Source of the DNA: a virus
Taxonomy: Duplodnaviria; Heunggongvirae; Uroviricota; Caudoviricetes
Direction: 5' to 3' (one strand)
Length of the DNA stretch: 13,879 nt
IMG/VR virus record: IMGVR_UViG_2703718788_000009
The stretch's first letter is position 1. Each line of letters begins with the position of its first letter. Below are positions 1-12,987 of this stretch, one piece after another. The position numbers and the translations under genes were made by a program. Below the pieces are notes generated by a model. That model was given only the letters and a program-made list of their open reading frames with translations, had not been told where the DNA came from and did no database searches.

Positions 1-120
1 AGCAAGCGCCATTATATTTTTGTGTGGTCTGTGGGGGATAAGTGCCCACTACATGGGAGTCCTTCCAGGACCTTAGCTAAAGCTAAGCCCGTTGGGTCTA
101 TGAAGCGTAAAGGTAAATGA
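1..120 (+). CDS. 3' part of a junction-spanning ORF (joins 13565..13858 if circular; 137 aa total); acidic N-terminal half, basic C-terminal tail; function unknown
   Basis: Frame of the 13565 ORF continues without a stop through positions 1..117 to TGA at 118..120, 1 nt before the ATG at 122. Not in the ORF track because it crosses the window edge. Confidence 0.4.
   Translation, partial: SKRHYIFVWSVGDKCPLHGSPSRTLAKAKPVGSMKRKGK
57..103. repeat. 47-bp repeat, copy A (two adjacent short palindromes: GTCCT-TCC-AGGAC and CTTAGCT-AA-AGCTAAG)
   Basis: About 44 of 47 nt identical to 4549..4595, including a 34-nt exact core 'gagtccttccaggaccttagctaaagctaagccc'. Confidence 0.85.
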
Positions 121-121
121 T

Positions 122-307
122 ATGAATACCTACGAAAAGATTTATCAAAAATTAAAAAGTGATAACAATGCTCCCGTCATCAAGGGCGGGGCTTCTTCCT
201 CTGGTGACCTCTCAATCGAAGAGCTTGCGGAGAAATATAATATTGATAAAGAGGCCCTGAAAAGGGCTATTTCATTATCAAAATCTTTAAGACAGGGCGA
301 GGTATAA
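122..307 (+). CDS. hypothetical 61-aa protein immediately upstream of the tape measure gene
   Basis: ORF with 'aaagg' 8 nt upstream of the ATG; its TAA stop is 1 nt before the ATG at 309, suggesting translational coupling. No recognisable motif. Confidence 0.5.
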   Translation: MNTYEKIYQKLKSDNNAPVIKGGASSSGDLSIEELAEKYNIDKEALKRAISLSKSLRQGEV

Positions 308-2939: not shown

Positions 2940-3392
2940 TCAGCCTCTCCCAACATTTGACCAGTATTTGATTGCACCGATCAAATCATCATAGTGGCGC
3001 ATTGCATCATTGAAGCCTTTATAGCTTGCCCATTGTGGTGAAACTTTGTTATTGCTGAATTGCCCACTAATCAGGATAGTCTCCAAAATGTCGGCGTATC
3101 GCTTGCCAATTCGCTTTCTGACGGCCTCAGAGCTCCCACCCTTTACGATTGCATTAATCAGGGCTTTTGTGTGTCTCAGGCTCTCATAGAGCATTGCAGC
3201 GTGGGCAGATTCCATAAAGGAGCGCTTAGGCAGATCACCCCACCCCTCAGAATGGATAGCCGCCAGTGTGGCGTAATTCAGGCCGCTATAGTGTTTCCCG
3301 TCATCCCAGCCAACCGCTACACCTTCCATCTGTGAGAGCTCTTTATGCAGCTTATCCATCATGCGCTTGTCTATGGTGCAACGGACTTTCAT
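2940..3392 (-). CDS. hypothetical protein, possibly virion morphogenesis or head-tail joining
   Basis: 150-aa ORF whose ATG overlaps the upstream gene's stop in an ATGA arrangement (translational coupling). It is the last gene of the minus-strand structural operon. The functional guess rests on context only. Confidence 0.5.
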   Translation of the reverse strand: MKVRCTIDKRMMDKLHKELSQMEGVAVGWDDGKHYSGLNYATLAAIHSEGWGDLPKRSFMESAHAAMLYESLRHTKALINAIVKGGSSEAVRKRIGKRYADILETILISGQFSNNKVSPQWASYKGFNDAMRHYDDLIGAIKYWSNVGRG

Positions 3393-4168
3393 TTTGTAGC
3401 ATCCTTGGCAAACTTGGCCTGCCTTTGCTGTTTCCAGGCGCTATCAGCTGCGTCATAGTTGCCGCCGTTTTCCTCTAACAACGTGTTAAAATCTTTAGTC
3501 TTAGCCGATGGGGTGTTGGTTGAGTTCCCTACGTTGCTATTCTTCTCAGCACTGTTAACAGCACCCTTTTGCTGTGTTTTGTTCACCTTCTTGCTGTTAG
3601 TGAAGACTCCGGCATTTTCGACCATCTTCACCTTGAAGGTGCGGAATTCTTCAAAGGTGCAATCAATAGTGATGCAGTCACCAGAGGAAGAGCTACGCTT
3701 AACTTCACATTTCGTCATGATGAAGTTCTCAAGGAGTCCGGCATCTTCACTTACCAGGCTAACAAGCTGGCGCTTGTCTCTCATTTCCATAAGTGCCTGA
3801 ACAGCGGCGGCAGGGCGCATAGATTCACGGGGATTATCTGGATCAGTGTTCCGGTCAATGTAGTTCTCTTTCCGGATGATATGAGGAGAAGAGGTAACAA
3901 TACCCGTAAAGCTGACAGATTTATCTTTAATGACGGCATGGTCTGACATGGTGGTGCCATCCTCGACCGCATAGCTCGATTTCTCAACAGGGAACGAATA
4001 GCTGACATCAGAGATAGAGTCAAAGAAGATAGCCACGTTATCGGTATAGTTGAAGCCATCCATTATATTTTTGTTTTGTGAATATCCCCCACACATAACA
4101 GTGAATGCAGGAGATCTCGATTCAGCTTGTTTTGCAGCTGTCAGAGCATCACTAGCCATATTAAACAT
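3389..4168 (-). CDS. hypothetical protein, possibly a virion structural component
   Basis: 259-aa ORF. A GGAGG sits 1 nt before the first ATG and about 10 nt before the second ATG (4159), so the true start is probably 4159 (MASDALT...). Ser/Thr/Asn-rich, with a Lys/Asn-rich low-complexity C-terminus. Confidence 0.55.
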   Translation of the reverse strand: MFNMASDALTAAKQAESRSPAFTVMCGGYSQNKNIMDGFNYTDNVAIFFDSISDVSYSFPVEKSSYAVEDGTTMSDHAVIKDKSVSFTGIVTSSPHIIRKENYIDRNTDPDNPRESMRPAAAVQALMEMRDKRQLVSLVSEDAGLLENFIMTKCEVKRSSSSGDCITIDCTFEEFRTFKVKMVENAGVFTNSKKVNKTQQKGAVNSAEKNSNVGNSTNTPSAKTKDFNTLLEENGGNYDAADSAWKQQRQAKFAKDATK

Positions 4169-4525: not shown

Positions 4526-4548
4526 CTCAAAAACTTAAGACGGGGATT

Positions 4549-4595
4549 ATGAGTCCTTCCAGGACCTTAGCTAAAGCTAAGCCCTTTGGGTCTGT
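4549..4595. repeat. 47-bp repeat, copy B
   Basis: See copy A (57..103). Lies between the capsid-gene terminator and the next minus-strand gene. Confidence 0.85.
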
Positions 4596-4602
4596 GGATA
4601 AT

Positions 4603-4663
4603 AAAAAAGGGAAGAGGGAAAGACCTATCCCCGATCTCTCACCTCTTCCCTTTGCTTTTATTT
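4603..4663. terminator. bidirectional rho-independent terminator downstream of the capsid gene
   Basis: 9-bp stem gggaagagg (4609..4617) / cctcttccc (4642..4650) with a 24-nt loop; flanked by A6 (4603..4608, a U6 run on the minus strand) and 'tttgcttttattt' (4651..4663). Confidence 0.65.
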
Positions 4664-4679: not shown

Positions 4680-5729
4680 TTATTTAGCCTTGGCTTTTGC
4701 CAGAGCAGCGGCGGCGGCGTTTTTAACACTCACTTTAACCACAACTTCGGGCATCATGTTCATGAAAGCATAAGAGGATTCAACGAAGATTTCTCGTTTG
4801 GCTCTGGACTCTTCCATATACATGAAAGCTTCACGTGCAGCGCCGTTTGCAAGCTTCAGGTTGCGAGCGCAAGGGCCGAAAAATTGAGTATAAACGCCCA
4901 CCATATCGCCTAACGCATGCGGCTGGAACTGTGGGACCAGATAAGCAGTATTCTCTGGCAGACTATCCATTTGCACCACACGCAGAGCTAAGCCTGGAAT
5001 GCGGAAAGTCGGGAAGCCCGGCAGAATATCCTCAGGGAACATCAGACCTTTATCAGTGATATTCTGATTGCCGAACAACAGCACTTTTCGCAACAGTTCA
5101 TCAGTCTGAATTGCAGCAAAGAGCTCAGCACGGCAGAACAGGGTGAAACCACGCAGAGCGCGAACGACACCACGCTGTTTAACCTTGCTCAGCGCAACCA
5201 GGTCCTGCAGCTGTTTAAGGATATCTTTAGCTAAATCCACTTCTGAGGTGGTTTGCTGTGCGCCCAGCAGTTCGCACACATTCAGTTCTTTACCCTTGGT
5301 GAGGATAATTTTGTTCTCAAAGAGAGCAAGCTGGCGTGCTTCTTCATGGGTCTGGCGTAAGCCTTCACCAAGCTGAATAACACGACGAGCGGTTACAGAC
5401 TCTAAATTCTCTTCGGAATCTTTGCCCGGAACACGGATACCCTGCCAGTCAGAAGGATAAATAGCACTTGATGCGGCAGTGAATGCCATATCACCCGTGC
5501 CCGTTTCACGCTCATCTGCGGTAATGGTAGCCATCTGTTCACCGTAGCGCGGATACTGACCGAAAGCGGTTTGTTTCACCTGGCGAACTTTGTCATATTC
5601 AAATTTAAAGGTATTGCACAGAGCAGTAGTGTTGAAGATATCCATTGCTGAAATAATCTGGTTATCCAGCGGGATGTCTTTAATCAAGCCACACAGATCG
5701 CGGACTTCGAATTCTTTTTTCATCTCCAA
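4680..5729 (-). CDS. major capsid protein (lambda gpE-like)
   Basis: The likely start is the ATG at 5723 with AAGGAGG 6 nt upstream; the track start at 5729 is TTG. The segment SLPENTAYLV and the C-terminal 'REIFVESSYAFMNMMPEVVVKVSV' resemble lambda gpE 'FLPDNTMVLG' and 'REFTMIQSAPLMLLADPDEFVSV', recalled from memory. About 347 aa, preceded by a small beta-rich protein. Confidence 0.7.
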   Translation of the reverse strand: MEMKKEFEVRDLCGLIKDIPLDNQIISAMDIFNTTALCNTFKFEYDKVRQVKQTAFGQYPRYGEQMATITADERETGTGDMAFTAASSAIYPSDWQGIRVPGKDSEENLESVTARRVIQLGEGLRQTHEEARQLALFENKIILTKGKELNVCELLGAQQTTSEVDLAKDILKQLQDLVALSKVKQRGVVRALRGFTLFCRAELFAAIQTDELLRKVLLFGNQNITDKGLMFPEDILPGFPTFRIPGLALRVVQMDSLPENTAYLVPQFQPHALGDMVGVYTQFFGPCARNLKLANGAAREAFMYMEESRAKREIFVESSYAFMNMMPEVVVKVSVKNAAAAALAKAKAK

Positions 5730-6548: not shown

Positions 6549-6577
6549 ATTATATCAGTATTCTCTCAAATTGTCAA
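6549..6577 (-). promoter_or_regulatory. perfect-consensus sigma70 promoter (TTGACA-N17-TATAAT) on the minus strand, directed at the capsid operon
   Basis: The reverse complement of 6549..6577 reads TTGACA atttgagagaatactga TATAAT, with an AT-rich stretch upstream. Predicted start near 6540, about 470 nt before the ATG at 6070. Confidence 0.6.
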
Positions 6578-6841
6578 CACCCTGATTATATAAATTCTAA
6601 TAATTAGCGTAGTAACGGTATTTTCAGACTGCTATCAATCCCATCAATACGTCACCCCCACCCTTTAGATGCATACATCCGACCTACTTTGTAGGCTTGG
6701 CGTACTGCCAAGGTCGAAGCTATGCGACTCATATCTATCACCACTTTATAAAGCTTGATAGATATCTTTTGATCAATATCAATGTTTTCCGGGGATTTAC
6801 CCGGCTATAGTTCGAATCAAGGAAGGGGAGCATTGATAGAG

Positions 6842-6890
6842 ACACCCAAAGGGGTGACTGAAAGTCACCTGGCATAGCCAGTGAAAGCAC
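6842..6890. repeat. 50-bp repeat, copy A (palindromes GGTGAC-N5-GTCACC and CTGGC-N3-GCCAG)
   Basis: About 42 of 49 positions match 12072..12120; lies about 45 bp upstream of the ATG at 6934. Confidence 0.8.
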
Positions 6891-6933
6891 CCAACCGAAC
6901 AAACAAATCAACTTCTCGCAAAAGGTGATAGTT

Positions 6934-7056
6934 ATGGGTATCAAGAACAGTGCCAGCGCATGGCAAAAGGCCAGGTTTCATCACCCACACATTGTTAAGG
7001 CAATTGAGGTGGTTGGAGTGTTAGCCCTGATGTTAGCTCTGTGTGTGGAGGTGTGA
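6934..7056 (+). CDS. small hydrophobic peptide (41 aa), first ORF of a plus-strand module
   Basis: ATG at 6934 with SD 'aaggtga'; MGIKNSASAWQKARFHHPHIVKAIEVVGVLALMLALCVEV, with a C-terminal transmembrane-like helix. A second 26-aa peptide (7058..7138) follows with SD GGAGG. Below the ORF-track threshold. Confidence 0.3.
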   Translation: MGIKNSASAWQKARFHHPHIVKAIEVVGVLALMLALCVEV

Positions 7057-7157: not shown

Positions 7158-7418
7158 ATGACGGGGGCTAAAGATATCAGGAGATTGAGGGAAGAGCTGA
7201 TAGCTGAAATTAAAGCTAAGGCAAAGCAAATGGAGATAGCCGCACAAATGGATGTAGCGGAACAGATGTACAAGATGGTTGAAGAGGGAACACCACGGCA
7301 GGTTATAGCAAAAACATTTGGTGTGGGGATCGCCACCGTGCACAGAAGGCTGAAAGCCTATGCCGACTACCACAATATCGAGAGAAAGGAGGATGGGAGA
7401 TTTAAGAAGAATAAATAG
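7158..7418 (+). CDS. small DNA-binding protein with a helix-turn-helix motif
   Basis: 86-aa ORF with SD 'gagagg'. The motif TPRQVIAKTFGVGIATVHRRLK looks like an HTH of the resolvase or IS3 OrfA type; the N-terminus looks coiled-coil. Confidence 0.6.
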   Translation: MTGAKDIRRLREELIAEIKAKAKQMEIAAQMDVAEQMYKMVEEGTPRQVIAKTFGVGIATVHRRLKAYADYHNIERKEDGRFKKNK

Positions 7419-7475: not shown

Positions 7476-8162
7476 ATGTTTAAAGGTCTTGTTGTTACGC
7501 TATTGGCTTGCATTGTATTTGGTCCATGGGTGTTAGTAATTGCTTTACCTATATTGCTGATCATGAGCTTAGGGAATGATATTAAAAAGCTGCAAAAGCT
7601 GCATGCACAATATAAGGAGAATCCCGGCGCGTTCATGGTAAGTCTGGTTATAGTCGCGGGGCTTATTGGATGGGTGTATTTCTCCCTCCCCACAGGAAAT
7701 ACAACTGCAAATGTAGAAGAGGCCGCAGTGGTAGAGGAAAAAGCCAACAAAGGATTCAGATTTATTGTTGGTGTGGATAGCCCAGTATATGGCCCTGAAG
7801 CTGTGGATCCTGCAATGGTGCATGCCTGGTTATGGAACAGAACGGAGAAAGGTAGCTGCAATCAACTAAAAGCGAGCGCCAACATAGAAGAGGAAGGAGA
7901 TACATTTTTCGCATGGTGTAAAGATATCAAAGGCAATGATAGGTGGTTTACCATTACCAATATTGTAGGTGTTTCCCGTTCACTAATGAATCACCCTGAG
8001 GCTAAGAATCCGCTAACAGGTGTCCGATTAAAAGATGGCCCAATATGGATCGATTTATACGGAACACAAATCACTGAGGGCGTGAACAGCGATATCCAGG
8101 ATAAGCTGAAAGACATAAATAATCAGTATGGTGCGATTGTTGAAACCTCTCCTATGAAATAA
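7476..8162 (+). CDS. membrane protein with two N-terminal transmembrane helices and a roughly 150-aa C-terminal domain, possibly superinfection exclusion
   Basis: 228-aa ORF with SD 'agagg'. Hydrophobic segments at about residues 5..30 and 53..70, separated by a Lys-rich loop. Function is a hypothesis. Confidence 0.6.
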   Translation: MFKGLVVTLLACIVFGPWVLVIALPILLIMSLGNDIKKLQKLHAQYKENPGAFMVSLVIVAGLIGWVYFSLPTGNTTANVEEAAVVEEKANKGFRFIVGVDSPVYGPEAVDPAMVHAWLWNRTEKGSCNQLKASANIEEEGDTFFAWCKDIKGNDRWFTITNIVGVSRSLMNHPEAKNPLTGVRLKDGPIWIDLYGTQITEGVNSDIQDKLKDINNQYGAIVETSPMK

Positions 8163-8360: not shown

Positions 8361-9368
8361 TAAGCCTTTTCTCTATTTTTGTCAAATTTAACATACCCTA
8401 AAAAACTGCAAAATCTGACTGCAAGATTATCTGCAGCTGGATTTCTTACACCTCAATTTGTGGTATCACCCTGACTAGTTTGTGCATAAAATGAACAGTT
8501 TTTAACATTTCCTATTCACCTGGTAACCACACAAAAAGCTAAAAACGAGGCACAGATAATCTTAGAGGCCTGTTTTCTTGTTATCACTATGGGAACGTCG
8601 TAGAAGTGATTTTGATGAAAGATGACCTACCCTATTACACCCCCATTTTTTGTTATCACAATTGCATCCTGTGCGGTATATGGCTGTGTGCTGAAAGCGG
8701 TCTTGGGTGTGGGTGTCAGAAATATCCATTAGCGGTATTAATACCCGTCAGATGTTCGTCTGAGGTGCCAGGCAGGCGCTCCCCCACCTCCCTTTTTTCT
8801 TCTAACAATTCTCAAATATCACACCACTGCCCACCACGTTGCTATTATGTTAATTCTTAAGCTTTGCTGTATGTTGTGCACATTATTTATTCAGGTGCGT
8901 GTACGTAAATTCTGGGCCTCCTTATCATGATTTTTAAATCAGATTTTGTAGTGCGCTTTATTAGTGTAGATAAGATCTATTATGTTAAATGCAATTTTCC
9001 CAACCCTTCAAATCAATGACTTACATGTAAGCATGCACTAACACCCCACACAGCACATTAGACGTGTAGATGTCTATATCCCACATTTTTGATTGTTTTG
9101 TAGTCATTCCCCTGATCATTTAACCAGTATAGTTTGCTATCTGCAGACCACAAAATCGGAATTTACATCTGATTAACATAATCTGTTAGCATGATCACCA
9201 TTACCCACACAACAATAACCCCATGCAAGCCTCTTTAGGCAATTTATCGGCGTGTTGGTGTGAACAGTCTTTCATGTTCTTTATGTATTCATGACTGCAA
9301 GGAATGTATTCATTGGCCTGTGTGGGGGAAGGATGGACTGCCCCAGGGGCCATACTTATGATGCCCGG

Positions 9369-9639: not shown

Positions 9640-9807
9640 ACCTGTGAAGAATTTTCACACCTGTAAATCCATACAGCACGGTAAAAACTACCGCACCACC
9701 TGTCAAAATATTTTACTACCCCACCAATAATACGGCCCATACCTGTAAAATATTTTTACTACTACCTGTCAAAATCTTTTACTACTACCTGTAAAAATAT
9801 TTGACAC
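9640..9807. repeat. iteron array with ACCTGT core (part of the candidate replication origin)
   Basis: ACCTGT occurs at 9640, 9659, 9698, 9741, 9764 and 9787, plus 9523 and 9566 in the preceding repeat. The last four sit in units of about 23 bp, 'acctgt(c)aaaatattttactac', three of them directly tandem. Confidence 0.7.
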
Positions 9808-9839
9808 TAATAGATAAAGTAACAGACCACACAATAGAT

Positions 9840-9902: not shown

Positions 9903-10027
9903 TATATCAAATTGATATACTTAGCTAGATGTATCAATTAATACACTTAAAGGTGAGCAATGCTTAGCTAGATGTATCAATCCGATACACTTAGAATATT
10001 CTAGATGTATCAATTAATACACTTAAA
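9903..10027. repeat. 17-bp perfect palindrome followed by three direct repeats of about 30 bp
   Basis: Palindrome tatatcaa-a-ttgatata at 9903..9919; repeats 'ctagatgtatcaat..atacactta' at 9920..9951, 9963..9994 and 9999..10027. Confidence 0.75.
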
Positions 10028-10906
10028 TCACGTAACTTATTGTATTTATTAAGAAAAGTCATCTACCTATATATACTACTGATTCGCCTCCGCTCATCAT
10101 TAGTATGGTGTAACTGATTCATGCTTCGCTTACGCTCACATTCATCTACTTACACCCCCTTATCTGAATTGAACATTCCCGTCCAATCCAGCTAAGAGAA
10201 TTGATTGAACATTACCTAACATCCGTTAGCTAACATTCTAATCAATTAACTACTTAAACACTTCCACACCTTCCGGTGGTGCCAAGTAACCTGGCATGGT
10301 GGGAAAAGATTCTGCCGTTTTAGGTAGAATTGATTTCCCACAAATAGTAAGTGTCGGCCCTTCAATGTCACTCTCCTATGAGGGGAGAGATGACGGGCCT
10401 CCTGTGTGGGTGAGTATCGGAGCAGTCTGTGAAGTATGAGCAGGCTGTGAGATACGCTACTGTATATCTGCGTAGAACAGCCTCCGCTGTTTACGCTCTT
10501 TGTGTGGTCCGGCGAATGCGTCAGCATGAGGCCCACATGTGGACCGCTGCCGAAAGCTTGCCAGCGCCGGAAGGAGGCAGCAAAGAGTCTCCCGCGCTCA
10601 TGTGTGGGCGTATACGTAAGATATACATTCATAAATCCAATCCTAGGCCCCTAAATGGCCTTCTGGCTGCATTAACCTGTGTGAGTAGTGCAATTGCATT
10701 ACCTGATGCTTAAATCGCGTTGTAGGGCCTCTCATAGAGAATTTAACTATCAAGATAAAAATTGCAGATCGGTCTATTGACAATCTTATTGCATAAATGC
10801 TATAAGTTATTCTGGTTTTGACACGGTAGGGGCCATTAATAATGCTTACCCCCTTTGCTGTGGACTTGCTTGCACCTATAGCACACCTAAATGATAATAA
10901 TTCTCA

Positions 10907-11495: not shown

Positions 11496-12410
11496 ATGAA
11501 TATTGAGTCTGTTTTTAATATAACTTTAAATGATGATCCTAGTATCCTTTTGCTGCCAATGCTCATAAATAAATCTGGACTATTAAAAAGAGGCGACGCA
11601 AGGGATATCTATATTTACATGTGGAATACTTACTATCTCCACGCTAAAAAAGAGGCCGCCAAGGTGTTCAGCAAGAAGACTAAAGGAAGAAGCCTCAGCC
11701 AGGATATGAAAAACTCCATCAGAAAAGAGTGTTTTGCTATTAAAGATAAAGATTCCTGTGTGGAGATCTCTTATAAGGATATAGAGGAAAGAATTGGAAT
11801 ACTGCGACCAAATGCAGTAAGGGCAATTAAAAAGCTGGAATCTGAAGGAATTATCACCTGCCTTAAAAAAGGCAATAAGCATAACCCTTATGCATCATGG
11901 CAAATTAATGTCGGAATCTTTGAAATGATGGAAAGAGTAGGGATTGAAAACCTCATTGGGTGGGATCTCTTAAAACCATATTGGAAGAAAGAACAGGAAG
12001 CAGCCGGAAGAGGGGAGGGGGCCAAAGCTCCACAGGAAGCTCCAAAACAAGCCGCACAGCAGCCTGAAGACACACCCGAAGGGGTGACCGTAGGTCACCT
12101 GGCTAAGCCAGCGAAAGAGTCCAAAGTGGTGCAATTCCCTTCTGTGAAAGATAAAGACGTTAGCGTAGAGCACAACTCTTATTCCGAAAGTGTGACAACG
12201 TCACCTGTTAAGGCAAACAAGAAGGAGGCATCTAAAGTGATAGATATTTCTTCTTTTATGGCAGATGAAGATGATACGCAAGATGTGTGGTATACACCTT
12301 CAGAAAATGATTATAGTGGTAGTGGTGGTTATGATCCTTATGGCTATGATGAGGATGAATACAACCCATTTGAAGATGAATATACAAATGATTCCGCTAT
12401 CCCTTATTAA
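11496..12410 (+). CDS. putative replication initiator (winged-helix, lambda-O/RepA-like N-terminal domain) with a long disordered acidic C-terminal tail
   Basis: 304-aa ORF with SD 'agagg'. The segment 'VEISYKDIEERIGILRPNAVRAIKKLESEGIITC' resembles the winged-helix DNA-binding domain of lambda O 'RITDSQLSEITKLPVKRCNEAKLELVRMNII', recalled from memory. The C-terminal 140 aa are low-complexity and end in ...EDEYTNDSAIPY. Confidence 0.55.
   Translation: MNIESVFNITLNDDPSILLLPMLINKSGLLKRGDARDIYIYMWNTYYLHAKKEAAKVFSKKTKGRSLSQDMKNSIRKECFAIKDKDSCVEISYKDIEERIGILRPNAVRAIKKLESEGIITCLKKGNKHNPYASWQINVGIFEMMERVGIENLIGWDLLKPYWKKEQEAAGRGEGAKAPQEAPKQAAQQPEDTPEGVTVGHLAKPAKESKVVQFPSVKDKDVSVEHNSYSESVTTSPVKANKKEASKVIDISSFMADEDDTQDVWYTPSENDYSGSGGYDPYGYDEDEYNPFEDEYTNDSAIPY
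12072..12120. repeat. 50-bp repeat, copy B, embedded in the Rep-like coding sequence
   Basis: Matches 6842..6890; encodes ...TPEGVTVGHLAKPAKE... in the disordered tail. Confidence 0.8.
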
Positions 12411-12498
12411 TACCCCCAAATAAACTAAATAAACTAAACATAGAATTACTAGAACTAGATTGATTGCCCTGATCTTTTAAACGTTCGGAGAATTAATC

Positions 12499-12987
12499 AT
12501 GTTCAAATCTGATCTTTCTGATTCCCAATTTGAAAAACTGGTAGCACTGCAGAAATATCTCCCCAGTGATGATCAACCAACACGACAGGCTAAACACTTA
12601 TTAGTCGAGGGCTTTACCCCTGAATTCGTGGCGGAATACACAGGCGTTAAACTTGAGAAAGTCCAAAAACTATATAATGAGTCCTGGAATCCACGGTGTC
12701 GAGTTCCCCTCAGTGTCTACAACGAAATAGACAGAGATAGAAATGTCTTCGAAGATCGCCGCCGCAAATCTCTTTTAATGTGGAATTGTGGGATGAATAT
12801 TGAAGAGATAGCAAAAGAATTAAAAGTAACCTGCTTTCATATCTGGGGCTTGTTGAGTGAAATCCTGCCACGTAAGGAGCTTAATCAACGTTTGCCTAAG
12901 CCCGGCAGTCGTGCTTATCGCGAATTTATATTCATCTACCGCCGCCATAGCAATAAAGTCCGGAAAGCAATGGCCCAGAAAGCCTAA
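12499..12987 (+). CDS. DNA-binding protein with two predicted helix-turn-helix motifs (regulator or small-terminase-like; unresolved)
   Basis: 162-aa ORF with SD 'ggag'. HTH-like segments FTPEFVAEYTGVKLEKVQKL and MNIEEIAKELKVTCFHIWGLL; basic C-terminus. Confidence 0.55.
   Translation: MFKSDLSDSQFEKLVALQKYLPSDDQPTRQAKHLLVEGFTPEFVAEYTGVKLEKVQKLYNESWNPRCRVPLSVYNEIDRDRNVFEDRRRKSLLMWNCGMNIEEIAKELKVTCFHIWGLLSEILPRKELNQRLPKPGSRAYREFIFIYRRHSNKVRKAMAQKA

Follow-up and report, generated by a model that had tools for sequence, protein, structure and literature searches.

We analysed a 13,879-nucleotide (nt) stretch of viral DNA (IMG/VR record IMGVR_UViG_2703718788_000009; Caudoviricetes), referred to here as the window, in which a short hairpin-rich element that we named E1 occurs twice. 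A repeat search of the window identified a 57-nt direct repeat, at 6838–6894 and 12068–12124, with 81% identity between its copies. The first copy lies about 50 nt upstream of a small-peptide open reading frame (ORF; ATG at 6937), which is followed by a helix-turn-helix (HTH) gene (7158–7418) and a membrane-protein gene (7476–8162), and the second lies inside a Rep-like ORF (11496–12410). These are the settings that a sequence-only reading of the window had described, and the two palindromes that it had noted in both copies are also there: the pattern GGTGAC-N5-GTCACC-TGGC-N3-GCCAG is found in the window at exactly two places, 6853–6881 and 12083–12111. The similarity of the copies had been put at about 42 of 49 positions, whereas we counted 39 of 49 between 6842–6890 and 12072–12120. 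Chance was ruled out as an explanation, as the composite pattern occurred in none of 200 dinucleotide-preserving shuffles and the top 49-mer match among 30 shuffled windows was 31 positions, compared with 39 in the window.

Junction analysis placed the true borders of the element at 6840–6887 and 12070–12117, each 48 nt and on the plus strand, and the two copies agree at 40 of these 48 positions. A third, smaller hairpin, CCC-RAA-GGG, precedes the two palindromes in both copies. In the 48 nt of copy 1, inserted in the leader of the small-peptide/HTH/membrane-protein module, the hairpins are CCC-AAA-GGG (6845–6853), GGTGAC-N5-GTCACC (6853–6869) and CTGGC-ATA-GCCAG (6869–6881); its left flank is GATAG^ (the caret marks the junction) and it ends in GAAAG. 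Copy 2, with the left flank CCTGAAG^, comprises CCC-GAA-GGG (12075–12083), GGTGAC-N5-GTCACC (12083–12099) and CTGGC-TAA-GCCAG (12099–12111), and it is an in-frame insertion that adds 16 residues, within ...PEDTPEGVTVGHLAKPAKE..., to a linker of the Rep-like protein.

The general form of E1, from 5′ to 3′, is (A/G)NAC(A/G)CCC-RAA-GGG, GTGAC-loop-GTCAC, CTG(G/C)C-loop-G(C/G)CAG and YGAAAG. Among 20 distinct copies, the stems are paired in 97.5% of cells, and hairpin 3 shows one compensatory change from G-C to C-G. Variation was concentrated in the loops, where 11 of 12 columns vary compared with 5 of 27 stem columns (Fisher p = 2.6e-5, excluding decayed copies in a phage ORF). The loop of hairpin 2 is 5, 4 or 3 nt long over intact stems; because loop length varies and the stems are fixed, a folded hairpin is favoured over a duplex site bound by a dimeric protein. 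Either strand, taken as single-stranded DNA, is predicted to fold with about −9 to −10 kcal/mol (z between −2.1 and −3.8), with an alternative pairing, CACCC/GGGTG, competing with hairpin 2. The ends of E1 (AGACACCC... and ...GYGAAAG) are not reverse complements and its palindromes are internal, so it lacks the terminal inverted repeats of miniature inverted-repeat transposable elements. Strand-specific wobble pairs were considered as a sign of RNA function, but the excess among one-sided changes (five giving G-T on the E1 strand versus two giving A-C) was not significant. Neither promoter-like nor terminator-like sites were predicted to overlap either copy, and the sole match of the window to Rfam 15 at E≤1 was a weak one to counter-transcribed RNA (ctRNA) at 2485–2525, far from E1. 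Mimicry of a CRISPR repeat was dismissed as well: the stem CTGCC/GGCAG recalls type I-F repeats, but the loop size and flanks do not fit.

The window, which is the complete contig LOFY01000001.1 of assembly GCA_001608235.1, belongs to a family of circular Escherichia coli plasmids of 13.3–14.3 kb, five of which are in PLSDB, and E1 occupies differing places among its relatives (numbered L001 and upwards together with the other records compared). We found clean pairs of filled and empty alleles, differing by exactly 48 nt, at four unrelated sites: the leader, a small ORF, the Rep-like ORF and a non-coding region of phage genomes. At the leader, the empty allele reads TTGATAG^CACCCAACC and the filled allele carries 48 further bases, AGACACCC...GTGAAAG; this site is filled in the window and in L003, L012, L023, L037, L043 and L045, the alignment shows a clean 48-nt gap in L001, L002, L004 and L005, and the remaining plasmids have no E1 match there. 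The small ORF, a homologue of window 122–307, has the empty allele TCCGAAG^AGGGATCC in L005; with E1 it is 48 nt longer and its product has 78 rather than 61 amino acids. In the same small ORF, L005 (CP134895.1, 1195–1480) has another insertion of about 54 nt, with the hairpins CCTTC-GGA-GAAGG and TTAGCTG-AA-CAGCTAA, exactly where its relatives have E1, which suggests that the spot is a hotspot for insertion or that the cassettes include a further type.

At the Rep-like site, the ten genes that were first aligned share QEAPKQA(A/T)QQ followed by (A/P)(K/E)K..., and an additional 16 residues separate the two motifs in the window and L001 only. The empty site in L012 reads CCTGAAGAG^GCTAAG, with similar sites in the other aligned Rep-like genes; the filled site in L001 reads CCTGAAGAC-E1-GAAAGAG^GCTAAAG, and the other 20 of 22 plasmids have no E1 match at this place. 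The comparison of relatives that the sequence-only reading had proposed presupposed that they would keep the protein segment; in the other Rep-like genes examined, the whole segment is missing. In the window, the insertion splits a codon and retains the frame. All three coding copies of E1 are in one frame, because the other two frames hold TGA and usually TAA. Across the 22 plasmids, 12 have the small-ORF copy, 7 the leader copy and 2 the Rep-like copy; a divergent copy on the minus strand occupies a fifth place, a second intergenic site, in 2 (L002 and L010), one has only a hybrid cassette (L036, which was re-read by eye) and 4 have none, with some plasmids counted more than once because they carry two copies. 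The suggestion that the similarity of the window copies lies at the level of nucleic acid rather than protein is thus borne out, since E1 is found in non-coding DNA too, in relatives on the opposite strand and in phages between genes, with its stems kept and its loops varying.

The left flanks of E1 are CATAG^, GATAG^, AATAG^, TATAG^ and, three times, GAAG^, with ATAG^ at non-coding sites and GAAG^ at coding sites. As all of these end in AG and the element itself ends in AAAG, the simplest description is a 2-nt AG duplication or a preference for AG targets, two possibilities that look alike for a repeat of this length; related cassettes, described below, have flank repeats of 2–7 nt. E1 is accordingly either 48 nt long or 46 nt plus a duplicated AG.

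We also found E1 in virulent phages. A BLAST search of 50,697 phage records with a 61-nt E1 query matched 53 records at 81–92% identity, all of them Vequintavirinae or rV5-like. Each window copy is about 90–92% identical to the phage copy, closer than the two window copies are to each other, and a megablast comparison of the window with the phage records found nothing shared besides E1. The intact phage copy lies in a non-coding region of about 1.7–2.5 kb between convergent gene blocks, and about 2.2 kb from it a small ORF contains a second, decayed copy in inverted orientation. The non-coding region is present in about 120 phage records, and E1 was detectable by BLAST in 53 of them. In an alignment of eight records, BP9, FFH2 and ECP2303 have the empty site GTCATAG^ATTATTAAC, Murica and rV5 carry an insertion of exactly 48 nt at this point, and in slur12, Alma and inoa the place is taken by a different filler of 19 nt. 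All of the intact phage copies that we fetched are at this one site and differ mainly in their loops; in one variant the hairpin-2 loop is 2 nt shorter and the stem is kept. Among the matched records, MG065644–MG065690 are named ‘Campylobacter phage’ (UNVERIFIED); given their Vequintavirus taxonomy line and rV5-type non-coding region, this host label should not be taken at face value.

Elsewhere, E1 was rare. It was found on none of the chromosomes of 5,426 complete E. coli genomes and in none of the GTDB species genomes in a pattern scan of one genome per species, and two pattern scans of IMG/VR gave nothing relevant. A metagenome scan returned one rV5-like phage contig and three plasmids; a further match (L022), in high-GC actinobacterial DNA, was dismissed as chance. 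In the databases scanned, E1 is therefore confined to this plasmid family and rV5-like phages. Several phage records are linearised near the non-coding region. A role for E1 as a packaging or genome-end signal was rejected: the ‘repeat_region’ of phage isim consists of 31-nt and 41-nt repeats that are not terminal repeats, and E1 is optional. The phage non-coding region, which is 2.5 kb at its longest, also holds other repeats and the sequence GGTGCGCATAATGGGTATTATGTTAAAT (Murica, L006, 3547–3574; DrSchubert, 93772–93799), which matches the search pattern used, the E. coli dif site of XerCD, except for two substitutions, presumably in the central spacer. The window has no dif-like site at up to six mismatches.

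E1 is one of several similarly built cassettes in these plasmids. A second repeat in the window, D2 (57–111 versus 4551–4605; 55 nt, 89% identity), when read on the minus strand has the layout of E1, with a 3-bp CCC/GGG hairpin, a 6-bp hairpin and a 5-bp hairpin without spacers. D2a (52–102, minus strand) is a 51-nt insertion, CCC-AAC-GGG, CTTAGC-TTTA-GCTAAG and GTCCT-GGA-AGGAC, that the window, L001 and L002 carry and nine relatives lack. D2b (4548–4599, minus strand) is a 52-nt insertion between the terminator of the capsid gene and the next gene, with borders ambiguous by 4 nt owing to a GGAT flank; it is filled only in the window and L004, and in L004 an extra 33-nt hairpin is nested in the loop of hairpin 2. 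A three-hairpin descriptor matched four places in the window (both copies of E1 and both of D2) versus 0.015 per shuffle, and a looser two-hairpin descriptor matched five versus 0.23 in shuffles. The tandem hairpins CCTAC-TTT-GTAGG and CTTGGC-GTACT-GCCAAG (6683–6712, plus strand) match the two-hairpin descriptor and lie within an optional block of about 67 nt (about 6668–6734), present in the window, L003, L004 and L012, absent in six relatives and probably a further, more divergent cassette.

The window also has empty target sites that are filled in relatives. Just after the stop codon of the tape-measure gene, the plus-strand site TTTTCTA^ATATTG (2437–2442) holds either of two differing 51-nt three-hairpin cassettes, one in L003, L011, L012 and L013 and the other in L005. 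At TGTGTGG (10501–10507, plus strand), L001 has a 51-nt three-hairpin cassette flanked by repeated TGTGTGG, and the same cassette sequence is found in L003 and L021. Pairwise comparison of plasmids thus shows the sister cassettes as presence/absence polymorphisms of 51–52 nt, and the wider set, E1 included, spans 48–52 nt with the same geometry and differing stem sequences. Hairpins are also exchanged between families: the L036 hybrid, which follows AATAG, combines hairpins 1 and 3 and the tail of E1 with a D2-like middle hairpin. The sister cassettes were absent from the 50,697 phage records and from other plasmids. We dismissed the possibility that hairpin cassettes are abundant in the phage, as a descriptor scan of the whole DrSchubert genome returned E1 and background only. 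Because no sisters occur in phages and E1 is all that a complete rV5-like genome holds, the plasmids look like the main home of this superfamily, and E1 is its only member common to plasmids and phage.

The cassettes are frequently flanked by CACACAG...CCCACAC. The heptamer CCACACA, often within CCCACACAG, occurs 20 times in the window versus 1.4 expected (for example at 21, 2410, 4089, 6370, 6397, 9046, 9205, 9319, 9416, 10403, 10501 and 10601) and 54 times in DrSchubert versus 13.7 expected, with clusters in the 2.5-kb non-coding region and at 132–135 kb; it is found beside many cassettes and may be a shared protein-binding or target motif. Other short segments recur between the replicons. 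A 24-nt segment of the window (8797–8820) with TAACAATTCTCAAATATC matches the phage non-coding region at 96% (DrSchubert 93919–93942), and window 10350–10403 and 10537–10597 are 85–89% identical to non-coding or small-ORF DNA of rV5-like phages (DrSchubert 134764–134967). A DNA search with this part of the window (10340–10615) matched 119 phage records, and the plus strand of this region has a predicted fold of −116 kcal/mol (z = −3.7), making it a candidate for a shared structured RNA or regulatory region; in relatives, hairpin cassettes are inserted within it.

We consider that E1 is probably a miniature, non-autonomous, hairpin-forming mobile insertion element, and that it is best read as selfish mobile DNA and not as a Rep control site. 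The features behind this reading are its defined borders, optional sites, AG target and stem constraint, the occurrence of several families with one geometry, the shuffling of hairpins and the survival of ORFs that it enters in frame. The two window copies would represent two independent insertion events, one into a 5′ leader and the other, in frame, into a tolerant linker of the Rep-like protein. One possible mechanism is a copy- or cut-and-paste reaction that would recognise folded single-stranded DNA and join it 3′ of AG, with the enzyme provided in trans, most likely during joint replication of the plasmid and an rV5-like phage in one cell; such co-replication would explain how E1 crossed between them. 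In its logic, this reaction would resemble those of IS200/IS605 and REP/RAYT elements or of mitochondrial GC clusters, all discussed below. The cassettes have no fixed orientation with respect to local transcription, which speaks for DNA rather than RNA, and many loops on the E1-sense strand are GNA-type triloops; a DNA-level, probably single-stranded, intermediate is therefore favoured. We suggest a specific single-strand hairpin transposition step only tentatively.

Several observations weigh against mobility. No transposase and no HUH or Y1 domain was found in the ten window ORFs tested (Pfam, E≤0.01; PHROGs, E≤0.001), and the phage annotation lists only ‘homing endonucleases’ and endonuclease VII (EndoVII), with no Y1/HUH entry, this being a reading of the annotation and not a scan of individual phage proteins. 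Copy number is very low, at 0–2 per replicon, and no de novo insertion was observed. The AG duplication is just 2 nt and could be a target preference without duplication, the 4–7-nt flank repeats of the sister cassettes would also fit microhomology-mediated insertion, and precise deletion between GAAGAG...GAAAGAG direct repeats could yield some of the empty sites. The pairing in ten aligned cross-family core sequences (99% of cells, with 9 of 14 pairs changed on both sides) is partly built in, because the members were found with a perfect-stem descriptor; it was obtained by counting pairs in the cores, as the full-length MAFFT alignment was off by one column. The independent evidence for the superfamily is the shared geometry, the CCC-GAA-GGG module and the insertion/deletion behaviour. 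Two features of the distribution, namely that E1 alone among the cassettes is shared with phages and that the phage and plasmid copies are 88–92% identical without other DNA shared by megablast, and one feature of the junctions, the resemblance in every case of the 5′ flank to the 3′ end of the element (GAAGAG/GAAAGAG, GGGGAT/GTGGAT and TGTGTGG/TGTGTGG), bear on the two alternatives that follow.

One alternative is that E1 is a functional cis-acting signal common to a helper phage and its satellite, copied by the plasmids because it is useful; a phage protein might recognise the hairpin in priming, packaging, transcription or helper sensing. Besides the sharing of E1 alone, this idea draws on the constraint on the stems, on the position of the phage copy in a 2.5-kb non-coding region with a dif-like site and repeats, and on the other short non-coding segments that plasmids and phages have in common. 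We regard it as unlikely, as E1 is optional in both kinds of replicon (missing from 4 of 22 plasmids and from BP9, FFH2, ECP2303 and other phages), its positions differ, it occurs in both orientations and within ORFs, and the stems have decayed in two old copies within a phage ORF. Alternatively, E1 may be a recombination junction or hotspot, spread by illegitimate or microhomology-mediated recombination between co-replicating genomes, as the sequence-only reading had partly foreseen. In its favour is the setting of the Rep-like copy, which lies 7 nt downstream of a conserved island of about 30 nt (12033–12062) joining divergent gene modules; the copy in L002 and L010, which lies in a replaced segment and is not a clean insertion, the flank resemblances and the hairpin exchange in L036 also fit. 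It does not easily account for the identity of the 48-nt borders at four unrelated sites without homology on the right flank. The window copies themselves are poor substrates for homologous recombination, because they share only short exact runs at 81% identity, and we judge this explanation quite improbable.

Two further proposals fare worse. The sequence-only reading had suggested an autoregulatory Rep site or an internal promoter for the operon that begins at 12499, and an operator for the Rep-like or HTH protein would be in keeping with a copy just upstream of the HTH gene, a copy within the Rep-like gene and the palindromic form typical of operators. However, 20 of the 22 plasmids lack the Rep-like copy and 15 lack the leader copy, and because four plasmids lack E1 altogether it cannot be a required operator for either protein. 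The spacer of 3–5 nt is a poor fit to a fixed dimer site, and E1 occurs in a virulent phage without a DNA match to the Rep-like or HTH genes. No promoter-like site was found in 11900–12550, and neither a sigma-70-like promoter nor a terminator was predicted at or near 12120. These regulatory roles are very unlikely. The last possibility is that the selected unit is the 16-residue peptide (TPEGVT[VI]GHL...), a motif shuffled between proteins, since all three coding insertions are in one frame and encode similar hydrophilic peptides. The same frame would be expected anyway, because the others contain TGA and often TAA; in addition, the best-preserved copies are non-coding, one copy is on the opposite strand, and conservation tracks stems and not codons. 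We give this explanation almost no credence.

Returning to E1 as mobile DNA, its closest analogues appear to be the yeast mitochondrial GC42 cluster and the double-hairpin elements (DHEs). GC42 has a hairpin-forming structure, AG target nucleotides and loop-biased substitutions; the mechanism of its movement is unresolved, and the paper that describes it cites the one on Allomyces double-hairpin elements (PMC4478555). Like E1, these elements are 40–50 nt long with adjacent hairpins, are optional at each site, have an AG target and substitutions concentrated in loops, and shuffle their modules (PMC4478555). Unlike E1, they occupy organelle genomes in tens to hundreds of copies, whereas E1 has 0–2 copies in phage or plasmid, has three hairpins and does not form a GC island in AT-rich DNA. 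E1 thus behaves like such an element, but it is not a GC cluster by descent, given a host that is not organellar and the lack of any similarity in sequence. Mitochondrial GC clusters also lie in frame inside coding regions (var1), and DHEs within coding regions are reportedly in frame too, in work attributed to Paquin et al. in 2000.

Among bacterial elements, the palindrome-associated elements derived from insertion sequences (IS) of the IS200/IS605 family and the repetitive extragenic palindromes (REPs) and bacterial interspersed mosaic elements (BIMEs), which are mobilised by Y1 (HUH) transposases, the REP-associated tyrosine transposases (RAYTs), resemble E1 in having hairpins near their ends, no terminal inverted repeats and insertion beside a short fixed sequence with little or no duplication. 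The GNA triloops of E1 (GAA, GTA and GGA) on one strand fit a single-stranded DNA form, and GNA-type triloops are unusually stable in DNA mini-hairpins. IS608-type ends have near-identical hairpins, whereas the two main hairpins of E1 differ, and unlike the REPs of E. coli (palindromic units, PU, and BIMEs), E1 lacks a GTAG box at the hairpin foot and is absent from E. coli chromosomes. Rickettsia palindromic elements (RPEs) are likewise palindromic, lie in frame in genes and are translated as an extra peptide. They are about 100–150 nt long and numerous in the genome; E1 is 48 nt long, rare and unrelated to them in sequence. The T4-type promoter early stem-loop elements (PeSLs) and the 50-nt insert of T4 gene 60 are also stem-loop cassettes of about 50–70 nt that are polymorphic between related phages, and they demonstrate that the coding DNA of phages can accommodate such inserts. 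An early promoter is part of PeSLs, which work by homologous recombination, whereas E1 has no predicted promoter; the gene 60 insert is bypassed by the ribosome and linked to a homing endonuclease, whereas E1 is simply translated.

The replicon that carries E1 in the window looks like an undescribed plasmid-type satellite of virulent rV5-like (Vequintavirinae) phages; literature searches on satellites or hairpin repeats of rV5 gave no relevant paper. Of the 5,426 complete E. coli genomes, 7 have a family member, which is a plasmid in each case and never part of the chromosome. Its major capsid gene (4680–5729, minus strand) has no tblastn match in the 50,697 phage records and no match in IMG/VR; in a large protein collection the capsid protein falls into 19 clusters, mostly on contigs of about 13.5–14 kb, and every cluster with a named source is from E. 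coli. The plasmid further encodes a tape-measure protein (309–2438; 709 amino acids), a Dit-like tail protein (3389–4168, minus strand) with about 50–55% amino acid identity to the DrSchubert ‘tail tube initiator’ bas50_0020, a neck or tail-completion-like protein (2940–3392, minus strand) with 48% amino acid identity to DrSchubert bas50_0012, and several HTH proteins. Neither a terminase nor a portal gene was found among the window ORFs scanned with Pfam and PHROGs.

The Rep-like winged-helix ORF (11496–12410, plus strand; 304 amino acids) has weak matches to O-like replication-initiation PHROGs and to MarR/CodY HTH Pfam families. The Rep-like genes are mosaic, with N- and C-terminal parts that are highly divergent across the family, and the island at 12033–12062 (CAGGAAGC.CCAAAACAAGCC.CACAGCA; QEAPKQAxQQ) is near-identical in all of them and looks like a recombination joint. 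Iteron-like direct repeats at 9695–9808 (four copies at about 23-nt spacing) and 9917–10027 (repeats of 22–27 nt) are probably the plasmid origin and likelier binding sites for the Rep-like protein than E1. A perfect sigma-70 consensus promoter (6549–6577, minus strand; TTGACA-17-TATAAT with an upstream TG) faces the capsid operon. One family member occupies 13450–21041 of a 30-kb contig (L045; NTNY01000053.1) beside genes for an aminoglycoside phosphotransferase, a DDE transposase and a TetR-family regulator, so the plasmid family may carry resistance genes. Another record, NZ_CP043822.1, is a 39.6-kb multimer with three copies of the capsid region.

Taken further, E1 and its sisters might constitute an unrecognised class of three-hairpin mobile DNA that moves as single-stranded DNA, is native to the satellite, is exchanged with the helper and uses an enzyme without a recognisable transposase domain; or the hairpins might be a working signal into helper replication or packaging. 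We regard this broader proposal as rather doubtful. What is new is the setting of a hairpin mini-element in a phage and its plasmid satellite. A suspected regulatory site becomes a clear case of very small selfish DNA that inserts in frame into genes, which is also a warning for annotation, as nucleotide-level repeats inside the ORFs of mobile elements may be passenger insertions and not operators. With E. coli, a lytic phage and a 14-kb plasmid, the system provides a bacterial parallel, open to experiment, to the GC-cluster and double-hairpin elements of mitochondria. E1 also led to its host replicon, an apparently undescribed satellite plasmid of rV5-like phages that brings its own genes for a capsid, a tape measure and a tail initiator, and because E1 has crossed between virulent phage and plasmid, it provides direct sequence evidence that both replicate in the same cells.

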